Part shown: positions 32,642 through 56,348 of the stretch, in pieces
How the letters are laid out: each line of letters begins with the position of its first letter
How positions within the stretch are numbered: position 1 is the stretch's first letter
Origin: a virus
Lineage: Duplodnaviria; Heunggongvirae; Uroviricota; Caudoviricetes
Direction: 5' to 3' (one strand)
Virus record (IMG/VR): IMGVR_UViG_2778261223_000007
Span: 1 to 64,000 of that record
DNA length: 64,000 nt
Notes under the pieces: model-generated
What the model saw: only the letters and a program-made list of their open reading frames with translations
Database searches by the model: none
Told to the model about the DNA's origin: nothing
Position numbers and translations under genes: made by a program

Positions 32642-32654
32642 TTGCCTTGTTAAG

Positions 32655-32670
32655 TTAAATTTCTAACATA
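32655..32670 (+). promoter_or_regulatory. operator-like motif (C1-type operator candidate)
   Basis: TTAAATTTCTAACATA upstream of the RepL-like gene; one of eight related sites. Confidence 0.45.
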
Positions 32671-33856: not shown

Positions 33857-33875
33857 TATGTTAGAAAATTAATTT
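33857..33875 (-). promoter_or_regulatory. operator-like motif upstream of the immI-like locus
   Basis: Reverse complement AAATTAATTTTCTAACATA. Confidence 0.45.
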
Positions 33876-36015: not shown

Positions 36016-39000
36016 TTGGACAAACTACTTCATTCAATCAGTGAAGCCTCCAGCTTAGGCGAACTGATTGAAATTGTTAGTCGGTTGCATAAATTACGTG
36101 CTGTTGCGACCTTTGGCGTCAGGAAAGCCGATGGCGTCAGTATTCAGAAAACACGCCGGGCAGCAAATAATGCCGCAGTAAATCTTCTTAATTCCCTTCC
36201 GCCCGGCTTCGATGGGGCGAAATTAACTGACGAACAACGTCAGATTCTTGCCGGGTATACCGGTGAAGGCGGCCTGACAGATGGTGAGGGCAGCCAATAC
36301 GAATACTACACGCCACAGTTTATGGCTGAAGGTATATGGGATCTGTTTGCTGACTACGGTATTGATGGCGGGCACGTACTGGAACCATCAGCGGGCACAG
36401 GTATTTTCCAGGAGACAAAACGGCAGGGCATGATAATGACCAGCGCGGAACTGTCTCCGATTTCTGGTCGAATAAACCAGCTTTTGCACCCGGAAGACGA
36501 TGTGAATATCGGGGCGTTTGAGGCGCTGGCGGCGAAAGATGCAATGTATGACCACGCTGTTGGTAACGTACCGTTTGGTGAAGGGCGTTCCGGCGTTGCC
36601 GGGCTTGATCCGGCATATGCAAACGAGAAGAACGTTGGCAATTACTTTGTGCTGCGCACGATCGACAAGGTTAAGCCTGGTGGGCTTATCGTATTGGTGG
36701 TGCCAAATGGCATGACCGATGGTACGAAATATAAAAAATTGCGCGATAAAGTCAGCCGTAAAGCGGAATTTTTGGGCGCACATCGTATGCCTTCCGGTAC
36801 GTTCAGCGAATCCGGTACAGATACCGTGGTGGACGTATGGGTATTGCGTAAACACCCGGAAACCTTCCTGGAGATGATCCCCGACACGGATGATTCAACA
36901 CTCAAATCGGCAAACGTCCTTTGGGATACCTTCCTCAAAGGAAAATGGTTTACAACCGAAGGGAAGCGATTTGTTTACGGCGACATGGAACGTGCCAGCT
37001 TCCGCAATACCCTGGTGGTGAAAAAAGACGGTCGTGTATCCAATGAGTCGATGAAAACCGCGCTATCTCGTCGCTTTGATAGTCGCATCAATTGGGATTT
37101 GCTCGGCGTAACTACTCAGGCATGGCAGGGCGCGAAAGTGGGCGATAAACGCCTTGTAGGCGGTATCTGGCATGAGTTTGATGGTCTGAAATGGGTTAAG
37201 GACACGACAACCAAATCCTCCGCGCTTGATGTAAGTCGATATGGTGTTTCGACGTTTGGCGATCTGCAGATCGCGTTCCAGTCAACAAACGGGATTCTGG
37301 CTTTGTCATGGGACCAGATATCGGCGATCGCGTCCGACTATCCATCGGTTGTCAGTGATGAAGTGGCAGCAATGATTCGCTTTGCTGGCAAGCAGCGAGA
37401 AAAAGATAGAGAGCGCGTTATGCGCGGTGCGCTGATAGGGCAGTTGATCAACAAGGCACTTGATTTGCGTAACCTGGGGGTGAACGTTGATGACAAACTG
37501 GCAGATGCATCCCGCCTGGCGGCAGCAGAAGTTGCGAAGTATGGACCACCACACGCCATTAAGCTGAATGGGCTTGCTGAAGCTGGCGCTAAAAACTGGA
37601 TGACGTTCACTGGCAATGTGAAACAGGATGGTTCCACTTCTGACCTTCTGGCAGGGCGACTTGATGTAACGGATGGTGCTGCCGGTATTGACTTTACACG
37701 TCCTGAACAAGTGATAGCACATCTTTTCAGTGATGTAGCCCTTAATCCTATAACGCTGGGAGACTTTCGTGAGGCGTTTGCTGGTGAACTGCCAGAGGAC
37801 GACGACGCGGCCCTTGAATACCTGGCGAAATTTGATGATATCGCTATTGATGGGTATGGCTGTCTGCTGCCGATGGACCGCGCCACCAGCGGCGATGTTG
37901 CAACCAAAACAGCACTGCTGGTGGGCTGGCGTGATGCGTCAACAGGTGAGCAGAAAGCGAACTTTGAGCGTCAGTTGGCGAAAATCGAAGAGAAACGCAT
38001 TTTCACGCCACTAAATAAAGTCACCGTTAATCTGAATGCCCGCTGGCTGGATCGCCGCTTGATAAAAGAGTTCTTGGCAGAGCAGGGCTATGACGAGTTT
38101 AAGTACACTGAACCTGATCTGAAGGTCGTCGATGGCATTCTGGTATCTCCGGACGATTACGAAGGTAAGGACGGGGTATTTACCGGCTATCAGCTACGAA
38201 CCGTAAACGGCAAAAACGGGAATGAGTTCAAGAAGGCCAACAATAAAGACGGCTTCCTGAACCAGTTAGAAAACTACCTGAACGGTGTTAAACCGCGTGG
38301 GCAGAACGCTAACGAGTACCTGGATAAAATTGCTCAACTGGAAGTTAGCTTTAACGACTGGTTACGCACCCACCCGCAGGCGGATCAGATAGCCCGTGAC
38401 TATAACGACGCATTCAATGGTTTCATTCCGTTCACACATTCTGACGCACCGCTTGGCCTGGAAGGGATTAGTGGAAAGCGCATTCCTCTGACTTATCAGA
38501 ATGAAGAAGTTCGGCGCTTGTCAGAAGATGGGCGTGGCATCATGGGATTTGGTACCGGGCTGGGTAAAACCACGACCGCGCTTGCGCTTGAGGCGTATAA
38601 CTTCGAAACAGGTCGCACTAAACGCACGTGTATTGTTGTTCCGAAGGCGGTTTATCAGAACTGGTATCACGAGGCACAGAGTTTCTACAGTGCTGATGCC
38701 TTCGCCAATATGATGTTTATCGGTTTGGATGAAGTTCGTGATGACAGCGGAAATATTCTGACCGCGCCGGTGCTTGATGAAAATGGCGAACCACGCCTCG
38801 ACAGTAACGGGCAGCCTCTTACCAGAAATGTTGTGAAAGAGTCCTCCAGCGCCGTTATCGTTCAGCGTATGAACATGATCCCGTCGTCAAATTGGCGAAC
38901 GGTCATCATGACAAAAGAACAATTCGCGTCTATCCCGCTACGAGAAAAAACCATCGAGGAGAACTCACAGCAAGCTGTCTTTAATGCTGTGGAAATGGGG

Positions 39001-42000
39001 CGTCTTGACCTGGCGTCCGGTAAACACCGTGATGCGCAGAAGAAGAACAAGATTAAGGATCAGGCCGCGAATACCGGTACAACGAAGAAGCAAAATATCC
39101 CGTACTTTGAGGATATGAACTTCGATAGCGTGATTGCCGACGAGGGGCATAACTACCGCAACTCCTTTAATGCCGGGCGTGAAGCGGGACAACTGGCATA
39201 TTTGCCTAACCCGGCAGTATCCAAGATGGCCCGCGACATGGCTGTAAAAGCTGCGTACATGATGAAACGCAACAACGGGCGTGGTGTAGTCATGCTGACG
39301 GCAACACCGCTGGTGAACAGTCCGATTGATGCCTTCAACATGCTGTCTACTGTCATTCCGCAGGAAGAGTGGATGCGTATGGGCATCATTACGCCTGATG
39401 ATTTCGTTCGTGTGTTTGGCAAAACAGCCACAGTTCAGGTCCAGAAAATTTCCGGGGAAGTGGAAGAGAAGCAGGGGCTGGTGGGCTTCCAGAACCTTGA
39501 CGGCCTGCGTGGTATTTTCCATCGTTGGGCCACTCTGAAGACTGCTGCAGATGTCGGAGCGACGGTTAAAATTCCCGACATCATCGAGAACACCTTGCAG
39601 ATCCCGATGACAGGGGAGCAGGAGACTGCTTATGAAGAGCTTCGTAAGCGTGCTCAGGAGTTAAGTCGCAATGATGAGCTGACAGTCGATGAAAACGGGC
39701 ATATCACTAACGACAAACCGGATGATTTCATCTTCTCCATCATCCGTGACATGGATAAGGTTGCTATAGACCCGGATCTGTATGCCAGTGCGATTACATT
39801 CCAGTTCCCCGTTGAGCTTGCAGACCAGGTAAAAGCTATTGCTGATGCCTTGCCAAAAGTAGCTGGCGGTAAAGTGGCAGATGATGTTGATGAGGCCGAG
39901 GAAGACGGCGCTGGCGGGCTGGTCAGTACGCGTACCAGCAAGGTAGTGAAGACCGCTTTTAGTGAACATCCGACGCATGTTGAAATACGTGCCAGCATTG
40001 AACTGGAAGCTGAAATACTGAAGGCCATTGCGGCTGCCGGCATTGATATGCAGCAGGTATCGCACCCCATCCCGCCGAAGTATGCCGCGCTGATCGAAAA
40101 TCTTCGTGAAGGTCTGAAGAACGGTAAGCAGATCGTCTTTATTGATGAAAAAGCCCAGCACCAGAAGCTGCGCCGTATTATCGCCAGTGCACTGCAAATG
40201 CCGGAGCAGGAGATTGGCATTATCAATGCGACGACAGTTAGCCAGGCTGGTGGCATCAAACTGAAGAAGGTGAATAAGCCGACCGAACCTACTCCAAACA
40301 AAAACGGTGAATACAAAGAAGGGGCATGGGAAACCTACTACAGCAAACTTGCCCAATATGAGGATTATCTCTCCGCTAAAAATGATGCTGGCCTTGAGGG
40401 CATGGAAGGTATTGCCGCCGACTATAACGAAGGTCGCACGCGCATCATAATCTGTAACAAGAAGGCTGAAGTAGGTATTAACCTGCACATCGGGACAACC
40501 GATATCCACCACCTGACACTACCCTGGACACCAGCCAGTATCGACCAACGAAATGGGCGCGGTGCGCGCGTAGGTTCACCGCAAGAAAAGGTCAATGTTC
40601 ACTACTATTGTGGCAAAGGCACATTCGATGACTTCCGTCTGGATACGCTTAAACGTAAGAAAGACTGGATCAAGATGGTGATGACCTCCGACATGTCAGA
40701 GATCGCCAATGGTGATGCGGATGATGCTGATGAACGCGCCATTATGCTGGCGGCAAACCCGGAAGAACGCCGCGCAATCATGGCTCGCCAGGCGCAAGAG
40801 CGTGAAGAACGTCTGAAACTGAAAGCACAGCGCGAGGCCAACAATGCTCTCGATATCTACCTGAAAGCGGCAAACGCCGCCGGAAAAGATATCGGCATGA
40901 TGGAGACAGAACTGAAAAGCGCGATGGAACAGATAGAGTATTACCAGCGAAATCTTGACGACCTGATAAAAGCGGGTACGAACAGGAATGGGCAAAAATA
41001 CGCGCTTGAGCAGTTGAGTAGCTACAGAAAACGTGCGCGGGTGCTGCGGTTTGCGATCACCAGGGCAAAAGACGCGGATACCATAATGAAACGCTCTCGT
41101 GGTGATGTGGAGCGCGCTATTAAGTCTGGTGTGCTGGATATCAGTATCGATGTTATTCAGAACCCACAGGAATATATGCGCACTGACAAGAATATCCTGT
41201 TGCATAAAGGTAGTTATTACCGTGCAGTCATTGATGATCGCGAAACAACAGCGATTGTCCGGGTGGAAAAAATTGACGGTGAAAAAGCACAATACCTCTG
41301 CCGTATCGCCTGGCTGGATAGAGCAAGTCGTTACGCTCGAGCACCGGGGTCAATCGTTACATTGCCGTTTGACTCTGTGATTGAAGCGGTAACTTTTGAA
41401 GAGGGGGTAGCTGAATCGCGCGCAACGGCTGCGCGAGGTGTTCAGTGCCACCAGCTATCAACAATACTTACTCGCGATCAGTTCTATGATGCTATTCGCA
41501 ATGGGGTAATGAATGTTATTGCTGGTAAACCTGGTAATGCATGGGGCGGTGGGTCAGCTATTAAATACTGGGCATATCGCACAGATGATGGTCAGATCGC
41601 GCTGTCATCGGCCTATGATGGCGTGATAGGCCAAAAAATCGGGCGAGCATCGGATATAGCACCTGAGCGATGGATATATCCTGATGGCAACGACGAGGCG
41701 CTGAAGCGTGAAGTGGCAAAAATACAAGCCAGTGATAACCCGCTGAATATCGTGGACGGCGAGGGATTCCTCCAGGCATTGTATGGGTATGATTACATCC
41801 AGGGAATGCAGGCATGGGGCGCACAGGCAACGATGGATGATGTTGCCCAGGAGTTCGAAAACTGGATGGCTGGGCGTGGTCTGTCAGGTCGTTCGCTTAA
41901 TAAAGTCACTTCTGAAGATATTCTTAGCTTGTTCCGCAAACCGTCCGGAGAAGGTCTGGAATCATTCTGGAGGACCGTGCTGGCATACCGTTTATTCCAG

Positions 42001-42852
42001 GGCAGGATGAAAGCCTTTAGCAATATCGATGATATTGAACGGATGTTTAATCAGGTCAAGATCGCGAAAATTAAGGCGAAGATCGAAAAAACACGTTCTG
42101 CGCTGGTGGCCTGGCGCGATGCATTGTTTGAGCAATATAAATCACTCAGTGATGCAGATGGATGGGCGGCATTGGAACAGCTGGCGAATAATGGGGTAGA
42201 TGGAGCGAAACTCGCCATTGTTCAGGCTGATAACCCCCTGGAATCACCGGCAGCACAGTGGATTAAGGTGGGGGCTGTCATCAATGCATTTGATGAAAAA
42301 CACATTAGTAAGGACGATTTTGCTGATGCTGTTTCTGTTAATCGCCTGGTAGAAATGGCTACCCGCCGCGCCCGTGAGTTGAAAGACGGCGACTATGTGA
42401 ATGAGTTGCCGGATACGCTCAAATCGGCAACGTGGCAGGACTATGTATCGCTGAAAAACGGCGGGGCCACTGAATCAGAGATCGCGGAAAGGCTTGAGCA
42501 GGCTGAAAGCAAAAGAGAAGAGCAGGCGGCAGTGGCTGAAGCCAGAGCTGATGAAGCGGCGAATGATGACTATATCATTGTGGTTAATGATAAGCCGATT
42601 CGCGCTAAGGCGCGTGTTCGCGGGCGCTGGTGGAGCGTCAGCGAGGACGTTGGCGCGGTTTATCTCATTGCCGACCAACCAGGTTCCTCGACAATACGGA
42701 ACGCCAAAGACGCGATTAAGAAGATTGGCGGGCGTTTCTGGAATTTTGAAGCAAACCCGGTTGCTGATGTGAACTTTGACCGTCCTGCATGGATGGTATC
42801 TACGCGTTACTCGGTAGATGAACTGCGTAAAATAATCGCCGATGCGGCCTAA
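36016..42852 (+). CDS. darB: DarB-like antirestriction protein: N6-adenine methyltransferase domain fused to SF2 helicase domain
   Basis: 2278 aa; SAM-binding LEPSAGTGIF and NVPF (motif IV-like) near the N-terminus; helicase Walker A GFGTGLGKTTTALAL and DEGH box VIADEGHNY; size and architecture match P1 DarB as recalled. Confidence 0.75.
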   Translation: MDKLLHSISEASSLGELIEIVSRLHKLRAVATFGVRKADGVSIQKTRRAANNAAVNLLNSLPPGFDGAKLTDEQRQILAGYTGEGGLTDGEGSQYEYYTPQFMAEGIWDLFADYGIDGGHVLEPSAGTGIFQETKRQGMIMTSAELSPISGRINQLLHPEDDVNIGAFEALAAKDAMYDHAVGNVPFGEGRSGVAGLDPAYANEKNVGNYFVLRTIDKVKPGGLIVLVVPNGMTDGTKYKKLRDKVSRKAEFLGAHRMPSGTFSESGTDTVVDVWVLRKHPETFLEMIPDTDDSTLKSANVLWDTFLKGKWFTTEGKRFVYGDMERASFRNTLVVKKDGRVSNESMKTALSRRFDSRINWDLLGVTTQAWQGAKVGDKRLVGGIWHEFDGLKWVKDTTTKSSALDVSRYGVSTFGDLQIAFQSTNGILALSWDQISAIASDYPSVVSDEVAAMIRFAGKQREKDRERVMRGALIGQLINKALDLRNLGVNVDDKLADASRLAAAEVAKYGPPHAIKLNGLAEAGAKNWMTFTGNVKQDGSTSDLLAGRLDVTDGAAGIDFTRPEQVIAHLFSDVALNPITLGDFREAFAGELPEDDDAALEYLAKFDDIAIDGYGCLLPMDRATSGDVATKTALLVGWRDASTGEQKANFERQLAKIEEKRIFTPLNKVTVNLNARWLDRRLIKEFLAEQGYDEFKYTEPDLKVVDGILVSPDDYEGKDGVFTGYQLRTVNGKNGNEFKKANNKDGFLNQLENYLNGVKPRGQNANEYLDKIAQLEVSFNDWLRTHPQADQIARDYNDAFNGFIPFTHSDAPLGLEGISGKRIPLTYQNEEVRRLSEDGRGIMGFGTGLGKTTTALALEAYNFETGRTKRTCIVVPKAVYQNWYHEAQSFYSADAFANMMFIGLDEVRDDSGNILTAPVLDENGEPRLDSNGQPLTRNVVKESSSAVIVQRMNMIPSSNWRTVIMTKEQFASIPLREKTIEENSQQAVFNAVEMGRLDLASGKHRDAQKKNKIKDQAANTGTTKKQNIPYFEDMNFDSVIADEGHNYRNSFNAGREAGQLAYLPNPAVSKMARDMAVKAAYMMKRNNGRGVVMLTATPLVNSPIDAFNMLSTVIPQEEWMRMGIITPDDFVRVFGKTATVQVQKISGEVEEKQGLVGFQNLDGLRGIFHRWATLKTAADVGATVKIPDIIENTLQIPMTGEQETAYEELRKRAQELSRNDELTVDENGHITNDKPDDFIFSIIRDMDKVAIDPDLYASAITFQFPVELADQVKAIADALPKVAGGKVADDVDEAEEDGAGGLVSTRTSKVVKTAFSEHPTHVEIRASIELEAEILKAIAAAGIDMQQVSHPIPPKYAALIENLREGLKNGKQIVFIDEKAQHQKLRRIIASALQMPEQEIGIINATTVSQAGGIKLKKVNKPTEPTPNKNGEYKEGAWETYYSKLAQYEDYLSAKNDAGLEGMEGIAADYNEGRTRIIICNKKAEVGINLHIGTTDIHHLTLPWTPASIDQRNGRGARVGSPQEKVNVHYYCGKGTFDDFRLDTLKRKKDWIKMVMTSDMSEIANGDADDADERAIMLAANPEERRAIMARQAQEREERLKLKAQREANNALDIYLKAANAAGKDIGMMETELKSAMEQIEYYQRNLDDLIKAGTNRNGQKYALEQLSSYRKRARVLRFAITRAKDADTIMKRSRGDVERAIKSGVLDISIDVIQNPQEYMRTDKNILLHKGSYYRAVIDDRETTAIVRVEKIDGEKAQYLCRIAWLDRASRYARAPGSIVTLPFDSVIEAVTFEEGVAESRATAARGVQCHQLSTILTRDQFYDAIRNGVMNVIAGKPGNAWGGGSAIKYWAYRTDDGQIALSSAYDGVIGQKIGRASDIAPERWIYPDGNDEALKREVAKIQASDNPLNIVDGEGFLQALYGYDYIQGMQAWGAQATMDDVAQEFENWMAGRGLSGRSLNKVTSEDILSLFRKPSGEGLESFWRTVLAYRLFQGRMKAFSNIDDIERMFNQVKIAKIKAKIEKTRSALVAWRDALFEQYKSLSDADGWAALEQLANNGVDGAKLAIVQADNPLESPAAQWIKVGAVINAFDEKHISKDDFADAVSVNRLVEMATRRARELKDGDYVNELPDTLKSATWQDYVSLKNGGATESEIAERLEQAESKREEQAAVAEARADEAANDDYIIVVNDKPIRAKARVRGRWWSVSEDVGAVYLIADQPGSSTIRNAKDAIKKIGGRFWNFEANPVADVNFDRPAWMVSTRYSVDELRKIIADAA

Positions 42853-42888
42853 CAGATAAGGAGCGGCCCCAACTGGGGCCGAATTTGA

Positions 42889-43323
42889 ATGACGACATTA
42901 ATTGACACTGTAAAACCGACGGAATCCTACCTTGAGGACATTTTGCCGCAGGCGCTCAATGGCAGGAGTGAAGAGGCGTTTCTGGATGCATATCTGAATG
43001 GCATGGTGGAAAGGCTGAAACGAGATCCACAGCTTTATCACCTTTATGGGCCGTGGTGGCCTGCGCTTAAAACGTTATTGCTGGAGCGCGGCGACATATC
43101 ATTTGGACAAGTGGTAGATAGTGATGTGGCAGAGATCTACAAAATGAGTCGCCCGGCGCTTACGGTTTTGGCTGGGCATCTGTATTCGAGCGATCGCCTG
43201 GAAAATGACGCGGTATACAATCCTGTTCATGCTCTGGAAGTCGCACCTTATGCCGATGATACAGAGCCATACGTGTACACAAGTTACGACGAGTCTATAG
43301 AGAAATATCGAATTATGGGGTAG
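42889..43323 (+). CDS. hypothetical protein co-transcribed with darB-like gene
   Basis: 144-aa ORF 37 bp downstream of darB, no terminator between. Confidence 0.4.
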   Translation: MTTLIDTVKPTESYLEDILPQALNGRSEEAFLDAYLNGMVERLKRDPQLYHLYGPWWPALKTLLLERGDISFGQVVDSDVAEIYKMSRPALTVLAGHLYSSDRLENDAVYNPVHALEVAPYADDTEPYVYTSYDESIEKYRIMG

Positions 43324-43325
43324 CC

Positions 43326-43586
43326 ATGCGAAAGAATCGTAGGTTTACGGTCGAAGACCTAAAGGAATATTCCATATCGAAGGGGTATATCCTTGAGTTC
43401 CACCGATACAAGAAGGTTTTTACGCTGCGAAAAGCAGAAAACCCTGCGAACTGGAGCTGGATATACTTTCCTCACACCGATGATAAGTTGGTAGAACTTG
43501 TTGATGATTTAACCTATGAAGGTTGGTTGATCGCAATCGACAAGACAATCAAAGAATTATCCGAACAGGATAAAATAACCCTTTAA
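43326..43586 (+). CDS. hypothetical protein (86 aa)
   Basis: Tightly linked (3-bp gap) to upstream ORF. Confidence 0.35.
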   Translation: MRKNRRFTVEDLKEYSISKGYILEFHRYKKVFTLRKAENPANWSWIYFPHTDDKLVELVDDLTYEGWLIAIDKTIKELSEQDKITL

Positions 43587-43722
43587 AAATAACAGGTTGG
43601 GTAAATGCCATGCGATTTACCCTCCTTGTTGATTAAGGTCGCTCTTTACTCTAAAAGCAAATCCGACCTGTTGCATATAGACCATCCTTGAGTAGTATCT
43701 CTCTTGTTTTACAAATCTAACG

Positions 43723-44217
43723 TTGTTGTTATTATTTCGCATATTTACTATCAATTGGTGTGTTAGAAAAATAGCGCGAAAGAGAAGGCGTCGCAGTGAA
43801 TATTCTGAAACATCCCCACATGCCGCAGCTCTTAGAGAACTGGAGAAAAACCCAGATCTAATCAAAAGGAACCATGAGCATTACGAGCAGGTTCGCGTCC
43901 TGGACTGGATGTATCGCAATATGCGTTATGTGTATGAGCATACTCACGCCACTCCAAACGGTGGCCTGCGAGGCATAAGGACGGCAATAAAAATGGTGGC
44001 AGAGGGCCAAAAGAAGGGATATCCCGATCTTTCTATAGACCTTGCTTGTGGGGGATACCACGGAATGCGCATTGAGATGAAACATGGGAGAAATCGCCTG
44101 ACTCCCGAACAACTCGTCTGGATGACTCGCCTCACAGAAGCCGGTTACTACTGCTTTGAGGCGCGCAGTGCCGCTGAAGCCATAAAAGCTATCACGGAGT
44201 ATGTTTGTCTTGATTAA
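43723..44217 (+). CDS. VRR-NUC domain nuclease candidate (start uncertain)
   Basis: C-terminal ~100 aa show the VRR-NUC pattern (..KKGYPDLSIDL...IEMKHGRNRLTPEQLVWMTRL..); true start probably downstream of the operator-like site at 43758 (GTG 43797 or a later ATG). Confidence 0.45.
   Translation: MLLLFRIFTINWCVRKIARKRRRRSEYSETSPHAAALRELEKNPDLIKRNHEHYEQVRVLDWMYRNMRYVYEHTHATPNGGLRGIRTAIKMVAEGQKKGYPDLSIDLACGGYHGMRIEMKHGRNRLTPEQLVWMTRLTEAGYYCFEARSAAEAIKAITEYVCLD
43758..43773 (-). promoter_or_regulatory. operator-like motif
   Basis: Reverse complement TATTTTTCTAACACAC, upstream of the VRR-NUC coding region. Confidence 0.4.
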
Positions 44218-44231
44218 ACGGAGAAATCGTT

Positions 44232-44432
44232 TTGCGTTTACATAACGTGGCAGAACTTATCCCTGCAGGAACTAATGCTATCGCTCGTCGTCGCTCATGG
44301 CAGCAGGCTCTATGTATTGAGATCTCGAAACGTATCAATGGAAGTTTTGAAGCTCGCAATATTGTTACTGGCGATAAGGTTCACATAACCCCGGAAAGTG
44401 CAAGCGCTGATGATTGGGAGTTTGTACATTGA
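44232..44432 (+). CDS. hypothetical protein (66 aa)
   Basis: ORF only. Confidence 0.3.
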   Translation: MRLHNVAELIPAGTNAIARRRSWQQALCIEISKRINGSFEARNIVTGDKVHITPESASADDWEFVH

Positions 44433-44728
44433 GCAAAAAATATTATGTGAGTCTGGCGTTCGCTGACGATGCGGGGAGGACGCGGAGTATCACGTTGAGC
44501 ACACCGGTTCAGGCTGTGACAGCGCCGTTAATCCGTGAAGCTCTCAGAGAGCTGGAATTGGGTGAAAACTCGGCACTGTTGTCGGTTAGTTGGTTAGGGA
44601 AAATGTCAGAGAAACAATACGTGGATGGAGTTACCCCAATAACAGTAATGAGGCTACTTTCATTGCTGCAATGGGCCATCGTACCTGTATTTATCGCGTA
44701 TCTTATTTATCAGGCTGCAACACAGTAA
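44414..44728 (+). CDS. hypothetical membrane protein (104 aa)
   Basis: C-terminal hydrophobic helix (LLSLLQWAIVPVFIAYLIY); followed by a terminator. Confidence 0.35.
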   Translation: MGVCTLSKKYYVSLAFADDAGRTRSITLSTPVQAVTAPLIREALRELELGENSALLSVSWLGKMSEKQYVDGVTPITVMRLLSLLQWAIVPVFIAYLIYQAATQ

Positions 44729-44734
44729 TTGCAT

Positions 44735-44761
44735 AAAAACCCGCCAATTAGCGGGTTTTTT
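44735..44761 (+). terminator. intrinsic terminator
   Basis: AAAAACCCGCCAATTAGCGGGTTTTTTG. Confidence 0.65.
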
Positions 44762-44801: not shown

Positions 44802-44822
44802 TATGTTAGAAAACTAATTTAA
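44802..44822 (-). promoter_or_regulatory. operator-like motif
   Basis: Reverse complement TTAAATTAGTTTTCTAACATA immediately upstream of the 44842 gene. Confidence 0.45.
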
Positions 44823-44841
44823 CAAAGTGACGGGAACAGCA

Positions 44842-46050
44842 ATGAGTCAACACACTGATACTTCTAATCTGGAAATTATCTCGACAGCAATTGAAACGCT
44901 GCGCACACAAATCGCTCTTATACAGAAACGGAATCCTGGTGATGACCTGTCAAAGCGACTGCACGAGAGTGTCATTGCCACTACAGATAACCTGGTGGCG
45001 GAAATCAACAAGCTGCTTGATGATGGGGCAGTTGATTACAATAAGCTGGTGGATCAGTTTGAGGAATACCAACAAGCCGTTAATGATGGCTTGATCCGTT
45101 TTTCACAAGTCACAGGCGTATCAGCGACAGTTGAAAGCCTGGGTGATGCAGTTAATCAATTTGCCACGAATATGCGTAATGAGATCGGCAATCTGGAAGC
45201 GCGTCTTGAACAGGCAAATACACTGCGTAAATCTGCTGAAGCCGATTTGAACCGTTACAAAAAAGACTATCCGCCCACCCTGACAAAGCGGCTGGATGTT
45301 GCGGAGAAGGATAACCGCACGCTGAAAAGAGAGCGCCGGGAACTAAAAGAGCGTTTAACCAAGCTCAATCAGCAATGCATTGATTATCAAGGCGAAGGCG
45401 TCACACTGCGTAAAAAGTTGGCTACAGCGCAGAGCATTATCGAAACATTAAAGCGAGAGTGCTCACAGCTTGGTCACGATCTGAACCGTGCTTGTGGCAT
45501 GGGACAAAGACCAGAGACATTTCCACTTATGTATGACGGAAGGGATGCCATTGCCTACATCCATGAGTATCCGCACGGCCTGGTTGCGGAAACTGGGCAG
45601 CGTGGCGAAGCACTGCTGACGGCTAATTACCATCAACAAATCAGAACCAATCGCCTGTTAACGATGGATGTGATCCCATCGGTATGGGGAACGCCGCTTT
45701 ACTATCGCCTGCCGGGCTTCGAAAAGGACTGGAATACCGACATAGACGAATGTCTCGCAGATAAAATTATGGCGTACCTGGAGACGGATTTTCCGCGCTT
45801 ATATCGCCGGATTATGGACTCAAAGGATGCGCCAATCGATGAATTAAAAATGCGTCCGGAGACGCTGGAGGCAATCAAGCAGACGGAGTTTGATACTGTA
45901 TTCAGTGTGGCCTGCATTCCAAGCTGTTTCCATGAAAGCATTCCGTTCATGCAAGGAGATCGTCGTCAGGAAATCATTGACGCTTGCCGGGTATGGGCGA
46001 ACGAATGGGATAAGAAGAATGGGGGTGTAGAAGATCTTTACGGGAAGTAA
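44842..46050 (+). CDS. hypothetical coiled-coil protein, operator-flanked
   Basis: ~402 aa from ATG 44842 (track uses GTG 44827); N-terminal coiled-coil; operator-like motifs at both ends of the gene. Confidence 0.45.
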   Translation: MSQHTDTSNLEIISTAIETLRTQIALIQKRNPGDDLSKRLHESVIATTDNLVAEINKLLDDGAVDYNKLVDQFEEYQQAVNDGLIRFSQVTGVSATVESLGDAVNQFATNMRNEIGNLEARLEQANTLRKSAEADLNRYKKDYPPTLTKRLDVAEKDNRTLKRERRELKERLTKLNQQCIDYQGEGVTLRKKLATAQSIIETLKRECSQLGHDLNRACGMGQRPETFPLMYDGRDAIAYIHEYPHGLVAETGQRGEALLTANYHQQIRTNRLLTMDVIPSVWGTPLYYRLPGFEKDWNTDIDECLADKIMAYLETDFPRLYRRIMDSKDAPIDELKMRPETLEAIKQTEFDTVFSVACIPSCFHESIPFMQGDRRQEIIDACRVWANEWDKKNGGVEDLYGK

Positions 46051-46068
46051 TGTGTTAGAAATCTAAAA
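46050..46068 (-). promoter_or_regulatory. operator-like motif
   Basis: Reverse complement TTTTAGATTTCTAACACAT overlapping the stop codon of the upstream gene. Confidence 0.4.
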
Positions 46069-46800
46069 TCACAATTCGAATGTGTTGATTGTGAAGGTAA
46101 CTTAACATAGAATTTTCCTTGCTGGTGGGCGGTACCCACGTTTCGCTTGCTGGGCTTGATAGTCACTTATTGGTTATTGTTCGCCCACCAGCATTTAACA
46201 AATTAAAGCGTTAGAAAAGTATAGTAACGCAAGAGCACGCTTTGGCACTGTGCAGGCAAAAGTTCAGCAGGTTTAGTGCGGAAAGTGGTTTCAGAGAGAG
46301 CACTTTGCGGAGTAAACGACAATACATGTTGAGCCACGGAAGGTCTTTTTAAGGTGTTCATTGATGATGGTCCGGCAGAGAGTAACGGTACATGCTGCAT
46401 CTAATCATCAATGCACATCTTCAACATTAAGGAGGCATAGGGATTTTTGTGGCGGTTACCTTTTGCCCTGAGTCTCCTTAATGTTGCAGTAATGCACCTA
46501 TGCGGATGTGGCCTTGCATTGTGTCTTGAAAGAATGGGGTAAGGCCGGGGATATCCCCAGGGGGAGGCACTCCCGCTGCAACGAACAGCCACAGACGGCA
46601 GTCGAGTGATGGGAACGTGAAAAGACTTTAAACCTCGTTATGGCTGGCGTGGCAAACGCGACAACCGAGACAGAGCGGTGACGGGCGGAGAGAGTGCCGC
46701 ATCAAGAAAGAAGCCGACTTGTGATCCCTTTCAGCGGGCATTTGAAAGTGAATCCAACTCAGGCAGTCGGCTTCTTTCTTGTGTGAGATGTAGCGTATTT

Positions 46801-50473: not shown

Positions 50474-50491
50474 TATTAGATATTTGGTATT

Positions 50492-50506
50492 AATTTTCTA
50501 ATACAA
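50492..50506 (+). promoter_or_regulatory. operator-like motif (variant)
   Basis: TTAATTTTCTAATACA upstream of the gene preceding pacA. Confidence 0.35.
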
Positions 50507-54908: not shown

Positions 54909-54922
54909 TATTCCTACTCGAT

Positions 54923-54937
54923 TTAGTTTTCTAACAT
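54923..54937 (+). promoter_or_regulatory. operator-like motif
   Basis: TTTAGTTTTCTAACATA in the promoter region of the minus-strand gene starting at 54908. Confidence 0.45.
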
Positions 54938-55302: not shown

Positions 55303-56331
55303 ATGAGTGAATTAATTATCTCTGGCAGTTCCGGTGGTTTTCTGCGCAACATTGGCAAAGAGTACCAGGAAGCCGCAGAAAACTTTATGCGGTTCATGAA
55401 TGATCAGGGTGCTTATGCGCCGAATACTCTGCGCGACCTCCGGTTGGTGTTTCATTCCTGGGCGCGCTGGTGTCACGCTCGCCAGCTTGCCTGGTTTCCG
55501 ATCTCACCAGAAATGGCCCGCGAGTATTTTCTTCAGTTGCATGATGCCGATCTGGCTTCGACCACCATTGATAAGCACTACGCCATGCTTAACATGCTGC
55601 TTTCTCATTGTGGCCTTCCGCCACTTTCGGATGATAAAAGTGTTTCTCTGGCTATGCGGCGTATCCGGCGCGAAGCGGCAACGGAAAAAGGCGAACGAAC
55701 AGGCCAGGCTATACCGCTGCGATGGGACGACCTGAAACTGCTCGACGTCCTGTTGTCCAGGTCAGAACGGCTGGTGGACCTGCGCAACCGGGCTTTTCTC
55801 TTTGTTGCATACAATACGCTGATGCGTATGTCGGAAATCTCGCGTATTCGTGTAGGAGATCTGGACCAAACAGGTGACACTGTCACGCTACATATTTCAC
55901 ACACGAAGACAATAACGACCGCCGCCGGGCTTGATAAGGTGCTTTCCCGTCGCACTACTGCTGTGCTGAATGACTGGCTGGATGTTTCCGGGCTTCGTGA
56001 ACATCCTGACGCGGTGCTGTTCCCGCCGATACACCGTAGCAATAAGGCCAGGATTACGACAACGCCCCTTACTGCACCTGCAATGGAGAAAATATTCAGC
56101 GACGCCTGGGTGTTGCTGAATAAAAGGGATGCCACGCCAAACAAAGGGAGATACCGGACGTGGACCGGGCATAGTGCTCGTGTCGGGGCCGCTATCGATA
56201 TGGCTGAAAAGCAGGTGTCTATGGTGGAGATTATGCAGGAAGGAACCTGGAAGAAACCGGAAACACTTATGCGGTATCTGCGCCGTGGCGGTGTGTCTGT
56301 GGGGGCTAATAGCCGCTTGATGGATTCATAA
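55303..56331 (+). CDS. dre: Cre-family tyrosine recombinase (Dre-like)
   Basis: 342 aa; aligns along its length with P1 Cre from memory at roughly 40-45% identity (..VSLAMRRIRRE.., ..LRNRAFLFVAYNTLMRMSEISRIRV.., ..WTGHSARVGAAIDMA.., ..WKKPETLMRYLRRG with catalytic Tyr). Confidence 0.85.
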   Translation: MSELIISGSSGGFLRNIGKEYQEAAENFMRFMNDQGAYAPNTLRDLRLVFHSWARWCHARQLAWFPISPEMAREYFLQLHDADLASTTIDKHYAMLNMLLSHCGLPPLSDDKSVSLAMRRIRREAATEKGERTGQAIPLRWDDLKLLDVLLSRSERLVDLRNRAFLFVAYNTLMRMSEISRIRVGDLDQTGDTVTLHISHTKTITTAAGLDKVLSRRTTAVLNDWLDVSGLREHPDAVLFPPIHRSNKARITTTPLTAPAMEKIFSDAWVLLNKRDATPNKGRYRTWTGHSARVGAAIDMAEKQVSMVEIMQEGTWKKPETLMRYLRRGGVSVGANSRLMDS

Positions 56332-56332
56332 A

Positions 56333-56348
56333 TTAAATTTCTAACACA
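56333..56348 (+). promoter_or_regulatory. operator-like motif
   Basis: TTAAATTTCTAACACA two bp after the recombinase stop codon. Confidence 0.45.

Follow-up and report, generated by a model that had tools for sequence, protein, structure and literature searches.

We examined a 2.3-kb interval of viral DNA whose five genes lie between positions 42889 and 44728 of the window, the 64,000-nucleotide (nt) stretch formed by positions 1 to 64,000 of IMG/VR virus record IMGVR_UViG_2778261223_000007. The 86-amino-acid (aa) protein encoded in this interval is very probably a diverged homolog of Lxc (Bof), the protein that assists the repressor C1 in phage P1. The window also carries a recurrent motif that we read as a predicted C1 operator of a D6 type, and a 66-aa protein of the interval is likely to have a Tad2-like fold. 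We consider it probable that two transcription units of a D6-type, P1-like phage-plasmid meet in the interval, with the end of the darB antirestriction operon on one side and a repressor-controlled cassette on the other.

Escherichia phage D6 (MF356679/NC_050154), a P1-like phage-plasmid, matches the interval at 99.9% identity, and one Salmonella plasmid matches it at 100%. Plasmid records that match it number 113 in total (Escherichia, Salmonella and Shigella), and it comes from D6 or a D6-like element. The first-pass annotation had described two of its open reading frames (ORFs) as unannotated and none as assignable to a named function, and both statements were wrong: the D6 GenBank record lists all five as orf14 to orf10 and already names three of them, orf14 as similar to P1 ulx, orf12 as similar to P1 pmgM and orf10 as similar to P1 pmgR. 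Only orf13 and orf11 are hypothetical there, and the flanks are darB (orf15) and pmgS (orf9). The ORFs themselves, of 144, 86, 66 and 104 aa together with the VRR-NUC ORF and the 2278-aa DarB-like ORF, were all located correctly. The locus is otherwise an ordinary, already sequenced part of a known phage, with all its elements of known kinds; what is new here is the assignment of orf13 to Lxc, the D6 operator consensus obtained in this analysis and the Tad2-like candidate.

Nei-Gojobori comparisons with pF801-4 (93% identity), pPSS-08-1_2 (79%) and pHX138.33gt_1 (74%) gave dN/dS values of 0.10-0.15 (ulx), 0.10-0.20 (86-aa ORF), 0.03-0.06 (VRR-NUC core), 0.18 (66-aa ORF) and about 0.10 (pmgR-like gene). 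Since these values (0.03-0.20, with relatives at 62-93% identity) indicate purifying selection, all five ORFs are genuine protein-coding genes. NCBIfam and PADLOC returned nothing credible for the five proteins, and Rfam returned nothing above threshold on the interval, with sub-threshold leader and terminator look-alikes at the terminator only. The genes, hairpins, promoters and terminator of the interval placed below, and the darB-like gene, lie on the + strand.

An Lxc-like gene in the lxc position

The 86-aa ORF (D6 orf13, 43326-43586) begins 2 nt after ulx. In P1 and Cronobacter phage JK004 the order is darB-ulx-lxc, and Lxc, at 82-83 aa, is close to it in length. A word-indexed search gave an orf13 family of 6 clusters, and an exhaustive HMMER search with a D6-clade profile against 1.84 billion representatives returned 11 proteins, 7 of which are distant (85-94 aa, E 2.5e-7 to 3e-4). 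The genomic context of four of these distant relatives (in loci L009, L011, L012 and L013) was the same in every case: a DarB-like gene, a Ulx-like gene and then the small protein. The DarB-like genes encode an N6-methylase and an SNF2 helicase and exceed 2100 aa where intact (in L012 the gene is in three ORFs), and the Ulx homologs are 49-63% identical to D6 Ulx. The arrangement darB-ulx-orf13-like is seen in seven lineages, namely D6, pHX138, pPSS08, L009, L011, L012 and L013.

A 13-sequence profile of the orf13 family aligned end to end with Lxc (P1 and JK004) over 65 columns (hhalign probability 77.8%, E 1.9e-5). In hmmsearch the same profile scored 18.1 bits on JK004 Lxc and 11.3 bits on P1 Lxc, scores that shuffled Lxc sequences attained in 0/5000 and 3/5000 trials, respectively. 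When 1710 six-frame ORFs of at least 40 aa from all loci compared were scanned blind, the two lxc ORFs (17.6 and 11.0 bits) were the only ones apart from family members to exceed the noise (at most 5.9 bits). The reverse profile, built from Lxc, scored 23.7 bits (E 3.5e-6) on the family member P0035 and 13 bits on P0036. P0035 had originally been retrieved by the D6-clade profile with an E of 2.1e-5 among the 1.84 billion proteins, and because it is found by both profiles the link between orf13 and Lxc is reciprocal. The C-termini are also alike (...RLNAD in P0035, ...LLNAD in Lxc).

Several results weigh against this assignment. BLASTP gave no alignment of orf13 with P1 Lxc, the D6-clade profile alone reached an hhalign probability of only 0.2% with P1 Lxc, and the Lxc HMM scored a non-significant 3.6 bits on D6 orf13 itself, so that the link is profile-level and transitive and lacks direct pairwise significance. 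The AlphaFold2 (AF2) model of orf13, of moderate quality (pLDDT 68; alpha1, beta1, beta2, beta3 and a long C-terminal helix), had no significant fold match or structural neighbour. In addition, no convincing promoter for orf13 was found within ulx, the best candidate being a weak TCGCCT-16-TACAAT at 43194-43221 (8/12), unlike P1 lxc, which has three promoters of its own inside ulx (P1lxc to P3lxc). A tblastn search with Lxc was also negative across the window, and the Lxc homologs returned by the word-indexed search were mostly frameshifted copies that gave no usable profile. A 2019 study of the D6-like plasmid pYU39_89 reported failing to detect an Lxc gene there (PMC6799933). Taking the slot, the profile homology and the selection on the ORF together, we nevertheless regard homology of orf13 to Lxc as very probable.

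Lxc, the ImmT co-repressor of P1, raises the operator affinity of C1 through a ternary complex and also blocks the antirepressor Coi (PMC8546580), and we lean, with more reserve than for the homology, toward a putative role of orf13 as a C1 co-repressor. The alternative is that the 86-aa protein is a Dar accessory, for example a factor in the packaging or assembly of DarB and Ulx. An orf13-like gene is tied to darB-ulx in every lineage examined, with lxc in the same slot in P1 and JK004, and linkage this persistent is what would be expected of functional partners; with no strong promoter found for it, orf13 may also be expressed with darB. Nevertheless, the biochemical role of its homolog Lxc is C1 co-repression (PMC8546580), the P1 virion-proteome paper does not name Lxc (0 occurrences; PMC9024508), and the six listed P1 Dar components exclude it (PMC12810830), which leaves the Dar-accessory explanation improbable.

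Downstream of orf13, a weak terminator-like hairpin at 43590-43631 (dG -17.7, z -3.25; terminator scan) probably marks the 3' end of a darB-ulx-orf13 unit. Its U-tract is poor; its sequence is kept in relatives, and a covariation test found no compensatory changes among them.

A D6-type C1 operator motif

The P1 operator consensus ATTGCTCTAATAAATTT had no match at up to 3 mismatches anywhere in the window, and for this reason the D6 motif was derived de novo, by seeding with intergenic sequence. The resulting 13-nt core pattern TGTTAGAAAWNTA has 7 exact matches in the window against 0.01 expected, and the 18-mer RTGTTAGAAAAYTAAWTT, allowing up to 3 mismatches, is found 8 times where 0.6 would be expected (695-712, 32652-32669, 33858-33875, 44803-44820, 46052-46069, 50487-50504, 54920-54937 and 56330-56347). 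With the site at 43760 the family comprises about 9 sites, whose consensus ATGTTAGAAAAYTAAWTT is asymmetric, about 18 bp long, and unlike the P1 operator apart from an AT-rich 3' end that the two have in common.

Members of this family precede the c1 ATG by 12 nt, lpa by 78 nt, repL by about 170 nt and pmgS by 7 nt; others stand between repL and icd (icd/ant), directly after pmgS, and at 43760-43777. In P1, RepL and Lpa are described as being under C1 control (PMC8546580), and because the sites precede genes that C1 controls in P1 we read the motif as the predicted C1 operator of D6. The site before pmgS (44827-46050), ATGTTAGAAAACTAATTT at 44803-44820 on the + strand, matches the 18-mer with zero mismatches.

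The site within the interval, GTGTTAGAAAAATAGCGC at 43760-43777 on the + strand, corresponds to the operator-like element of the first-pass annotation, which thus proved to be one occurrence of a recurrent motif. It keeps the core, and its 3' part departs from the family consensus. Two promoter-like elements precede it. The best regional sigma-70 match in the promoter scan, TTTACA-16-TG-n-TATTAT (TGtTATTAT; 10/12 with an extended -10), lies at 43708-43735 and overlaps the annotated TTG start of pmgM at 43723. The pair TTGCAT-16-TAGTAT at 43671-43698, found by a relaxed scan and alignment, scores below it, and neither of its hexamers varies among four relatives, whose identity ranges down to 74%. 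Searches for a P1-style late promoter (-22 box) and for recurrence of a conserved element, CTTGAGTAGTAT, found nothing recurrent, so we make no late-promoter claim.

Is the 43760 site an operator at all? The match to the consensus is confined to the core, with 5 mismatches in the 18-mer, and the only canonical in-frame starts of D6 pmgM, TTG 43723 and TTG 43726, fall inside the best-scoring promoter; both facts count against the organisation proposed here. The site could instead be a non-functional remnant, with pmgM, orf11 and pmgR transcribed by read-through from darB past the weak hairpin. Read-through is conceivable at 43590-43631, where the U-tract is not good, and the site lies downstream of both candidate promoters without overlapping either, within the annotated pmgM reading frame. 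However, all four relatives (74-93% identity) keep the core TGTGTTAGAAA unchanged in diverging surroundings, and the flanking, nominally coding positions show a dN/dS of 0.74-0.89; invariance of the core amid such flanks is a signature of constraint at the DNA level. Moreover, in pPSS08 the operator core is upstream of the sole possible pmgM start codon, and the P1 record likewise places C1 operators ahead of pmgL-pmgM (O26) and of pmgR-pmgS (OpmgRa/b). We accordingly rate a dead remnant as a poor bet and retain the site as a predicted D6-type operator.

PmgM, a predicted junction-resolving nuclease

The pmgM homolog (D6 orf12, annotated at 43723-44217, with a conserved core from 43807) encodes the VRR-NUC signature noticed at first pass, and the signature is sound: Pfam VRR_NUC (PF08774) scores 27.0 bits against a gathering cutoff of 23.8 (E 5e-6). 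The protein is 57% identical to P1 PmgM (E 1e-47) and matches the psNUC structure PDB 4QBL with an E of 8.9e-14. Its PD-(D/E)xK site is intact (E55, D102, E118 and K120 in the annotated numbering), with GYPD102...IE118MK120 aligning to GYPDL...RIEIK of psNUC. The standalone prokaryotic VRR-Nuc proteins psNUC, stNUC and saNUC (PDB 4QBL, 4QBN and 4QBO) are dimers that cut four-way (Holliday) junctions symmetrically (PMC4103454). D6 PmgM has significant sequence similarity to psNUC and keeps the GYPDL...RIExK motif; it differs from these enzymes in a basic N-terminal extension of about 50 aa. By this analogy, its most likely role would be that of a dimeric resolvase of Holliday junctions or other branched DNA, resolving intermediates of replication and recombination. 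Some published findings do not favour an important role: P1 pmgM is dispensable and gave no phenotype in a CRISPRi knock-down and deletion survey (PMC10695390), and the P1 authors consider many such 'head' genes unnecessary for infectious virions (PMC9024508).

Homology to P1 PmgM begins at residue 29, and residues 1-28 have a dN/dS of 0.74-0.89. The start codons of relatives differ: in pPSS08 an ATG closely follows the operator core and an in-frame stop lies upstream of it, and in pHX138 an ATG lies just before the core. A programmed frameshift from GTG 43796, which is well placed behind a good AGAAGG Shine-Dalgarno (SD) sequence and out of frame, was considered and rejected: the sequence offers no slippery heptamer, and relatives use ordinary in-frame ATGs at other positions. 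The 21-codon ORF that starts at this GTG (43796-43861) overlaps the conserved N-terminal coding region of pmgM, and may be due to chance or be a small upstream or overlapping ORF that affects pmgM translation. In pPSS-08-1_2 (L005 2196-2420), RefSeq has only a 74-aa 'VRR-NUC' fragment where the full frame is intact with a dN/dS of 0.03; the fragment is an annotation artefact of the unusual start region.

A Tad2-like candidate between pmgM and pmgR

The 66-aa ORF (D6 orf11, 44232-44432) had been grouped among small membrane ORFs at first pass; that description holds for its downstream neighbour, which has a C-terminal hydrophobic segment, and fails for orf11, which is soluble, with no membrane segment (maximum hydropathy 0.34). 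Its sole family match was PHROG 7206, of unknown function. We assign it a probable Tad2/AcrIIA7-like (DUF2829-like) fold. Its AF2 model is good (pLDDT 84.7, pTM 0.69); by eye, the motifs ARRRSW and ADDWEFV resemble DUF2829.

Compared directly with Tad2, orf11 reached significance neither in a PDB profile search nor with Pfam or hhalign, and none of 9 members of the orf11 family matched the Pfam Tad2-like model (PF11195) even at E 10. The gene that separates pmgM from pmgR in L009 specifies a protein of 187 aa, of which the C-terminal 60 residues score above the PF11195 threshold (E 4.6e-7, 30.7 bits against a cutoff of 25). The counterpart in L013, a 172-aa homolog of that protein, falls below the PF11195 threshold (E 0.028), and its C-terminal domain scores 8.8 bits with the orf11 profile, which 2/3000 shuffles attained. 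Because the syntenic slot in L009 holds a PF11195 domain, the Tad2-like assignment of orf11 is independently supported. The Tad2-like domain of these relatives is the C-terminus of 172-187-aa proteins, and compared with Tad2/DUF2829 (PF11195) and AcrIIA7, orf11, at only 66 aa, fails the Pfam model and lacks a central insert of about 20-35 aa.

On balance a Tad2-like fold or descent is likely, if less so than the Lxc homology of orf13. The competing explanation is that orf11 is a lineage-specific small partner of PmgM or PmgR, either a nuclease regulator or a morphogenesis factor, whose compact, beta-rich fold is only superficially Tad2-like. We think it the less likely of the two, though still credible. 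A counter-defence function for orf11 is much less certain than its fold. Tad2 of SPO1 and its homologs sequesters gcADPR (bioRxiv 10.1101/2023.05.01.538930) and AcrIIA7 was reported to bind tracrRNA (PMC13133391); since proteins of this fold take such different ligands, the fold alone does not fix the target of orf11.

Ulx and the hairpin in the darB-ulx spacer

The first-pass annotation had suggested that both the 144- and 86-aa ORFs might be packaged or antirestriction components. This was right for the 144-aa ORF (D6 orf14, 42889-43323), since it is homologous to P1 Ulx (47% identity, 96% coverage, E 8e-35), and it matches phrog_1629, 'Ulx-like anti-restriction' (E 2.3e-59); the 86-aa ORF is better explained as the diverged Lxc/Bof member described above. 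P1 Ulx was detected in purified virions (head) and 'aids DarB localization' (PMC9024508), and it is one of six Dar internal proteins involved in protection from EcoB and EcoK (PMC12810830). By homology, the D6 product is a Ulx homolog and a predicted virion-packaged antirestriction component that would help DarB. The gene begins 36 nt after the darB-like ORF (2278 aa, 36016-42852), which appears in the ORF list, is 'similar to P1 gene darB' in the D6 record and would be the first gene of the antirestriction unit; the D6 genome annotation also has hdf, darA, ddrA and ddrB homologs, as in the P1 Dar system.

The absence of a terminator after darB, claimed at first pass, was confirmed insofar as the 36-nt spacer has no intrinsic terminator, but the spacer does contain a stable GC hairpin (CGGCCCC-AACT-GGGGCCG, 42864-42881; dG -16.4, z -4.3), which lies between the darB stop and the ulx ATG, has no U-tract and carries GGAG directly 5'. 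P1, JK004, pHX138, L009, L011 and L013 have a GC hairpin of 6-8 bp and of other sequence at the same position. The stem is perfect in each lineage and both arms covary (CGGCCCC, CGGCCTC, CGCCCGG, GCGCCC and others), over the spans 42858-42891 in the window, 1465-1503 in L004, 1028-1066 in L008 (JK004), 1351-1392 in L006 (pHX138), 5530-5566 in L009, 4535-4566 in L013 and the equivalent site in L011. In 6 of 7 lineages GGAG stands immediately 5' of the stem and the stem is 6-9 nt from the ATG. The hairpin is not a terminator; it looks like either a split Shine-Dalgarno element, in which folding brings the SD to the ulx start, or an mRNA-stabilising stem.

The pmgR-like gene and the terminator

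The last gene of the interval (D6 orf10) is 104 aa long when read from 44414 to 44728 and 99 aa from the publicly annotated TTG start at 44429 (44429-44728), which overlaps the orf11 stop. Its product is 31% identical to residues 7-67 of P1 PmgR over 61 aa (E 3e-6) and matches phrog_9115 and phrog_3177. PmgR is essential in P1 (PMC9024508). A C-terminal transmembrane (TM)-like helix is encoded at 44654-44710, where the 19-residue Kyte-Doolittle mean reaches 1.99 (residues 76-94) against 0.88 for P1 PmgR. Such a helix (hydropathy 2.0-2.3) is present on PmgR of D6, pHX138 (L006 2996-3235) and L013 (6893-7147), without conservation of its sequence, and is absent from PmgR of P1, L009 and L011. 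For a protein with an implied part in head completion, a predicted membrane anchor is odd.

The strong terminator noted at first pass at the end of the interval was borne out as a canonical intrinsic terminator at 44735-44760, with a 10-bp stem, an A-run upstream and a T-run downstream (dG -19.7, z -5.55, about -5.6); 0/200 shuffles were as stable. pmgS begins 99 nt downstream of the pmgR-like gene.

Comparison with P1 and conservation of the module

D6 shares with P1 the end of the Dar cluster, in which darB is followed by a gap of about 35 nt with a GC hairpin, by ulx and by an abutting gene of 82-86 aa; the third genes are related only at the profile level, with no pairwise-detectable similarity, and the D6 gene shows no strong internal promoters. 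The two elements then part. After the cluster P1 has the EcoP1 mod/res genes, whereas D6, JK004, L009 and L013 have pmgM. Compared with the pmgL-pmgM and pmgR-pmgS groups of P1, D6 has PmgM (57% identity) and PmgR (31%), followed by PmgS, and C1-type operators precede these genes in both elements; the D6 consensus ATGTTAGAAAAYTAAWTT differs from ATTGCTCTAATAAATTT of P1. D6 lacks pmgL and the block pmgN-pmgO-pmgP-ppp-pmgQ and has just the 66-aa gene between pmgM and pmgR. Its PmgM has a shortened, poorly constrained N-terminus, and its PmgR carries the extra C-terminal helix.

The order darB-ulx-lxc-like-(small TM ORF in some)-pmgM-Tad2-like gene-pmgR-pmgS was seen in L009 and L013, and in JK004 the stretch from darB through pmgM is conserved, with pmgL. 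The D6 module is compact, without pmgL or the small TM ORF and with the Tad2-like gene cut down to its C-terminal domain. Because this module is conserved in distant P1-like elements, we read the interval as spanning the end of an antirestriction operon and a C1-controlled cassette.

An ORF of 54-61 aa with a hydrophobic C-terminus stands between the lxc-like gene and pmgL/pmgM in JK004 (L008 1825-2010), L009 (6447-6614) and L013 (5441-5605); D6 has only 136 nt of non-coding DNA there. Among the P1 genes that D6 lacks, pmgN, pmgO, pmgP and pmgQ gave no Pfam Tad2-like match, and PmgO and PmgP (L003 5132-6318) had sub-threshold matches to Pfam MptE-like (6-hydroxymethylpterin diphosphokinase-like; E 6e-5 and 3e-4).

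Proposed organisation and implications

We infer the biochemical activities and transcript boundaries in the following model from the homologies, synteny, motif enrichment and purifying selection reported above. The first unit would be the 3' end of the darB antirestriction operon, closed by the hairpin after orf13. By analogy with P1, Ulx would be packaged in the head and help DarB to shield injected DNA from type I (EcoB/EcoK) restriction, and orf13 would be the D6 counterpart of P1 lxc/bof within this unit. The second unit would be a repressor-controlled cassette that starts at one or both sigma-70-type promoters, followed by the D6-type C1 operator; with the promoters and operator so arranged, it is expected to stay silent in the prophage and to be turned on at derepression. 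Its PmgM may tidy replicating or recombining phage DNA as a resolvase, its 66-aa protein may bind a small molecule or nucleic acid in counter-defence, and its PmgR homolog would be anchored in the membrane by the predicted C-terminal helix, with the strong terminator ending the unit.

These observations support the view that pmgM and its neighbours are misnamed by their 'pmg' (morphogenetic) labels. A bolder and, taken jointly, unlikely reading is that an Lxc-like protein is the obligatory third gene of every P1-like darB-ulx cassette and that the adjacent cassette is an early counter-defence and DNA-processing module, not a morphogenetic one. If the first part held, a repressor co-factor would be tied to the antirestriction operon; if the second held, the 66-aa protein would act as a minimal sponge of the Tad2 type, or as an RNA binder, against enterobacterial Thoeris, CBASS or CRISPR systems.

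E. coli and Salmonella commonly carry D6-like phage-plasmids, as the matching plasmid records indicate. That a cryptic Lxc homolog occupies the canonical slot suggests conservation in these elements of the tripartite immunity logic of P1, with C1, an antirepressor and a co-repressor. The homolog and the operator motif provide a concrete protein and a concrete sequence with which this can be tested, and the Tad2-like assignment adds a candidate anti-defence gene beside the Dar system.

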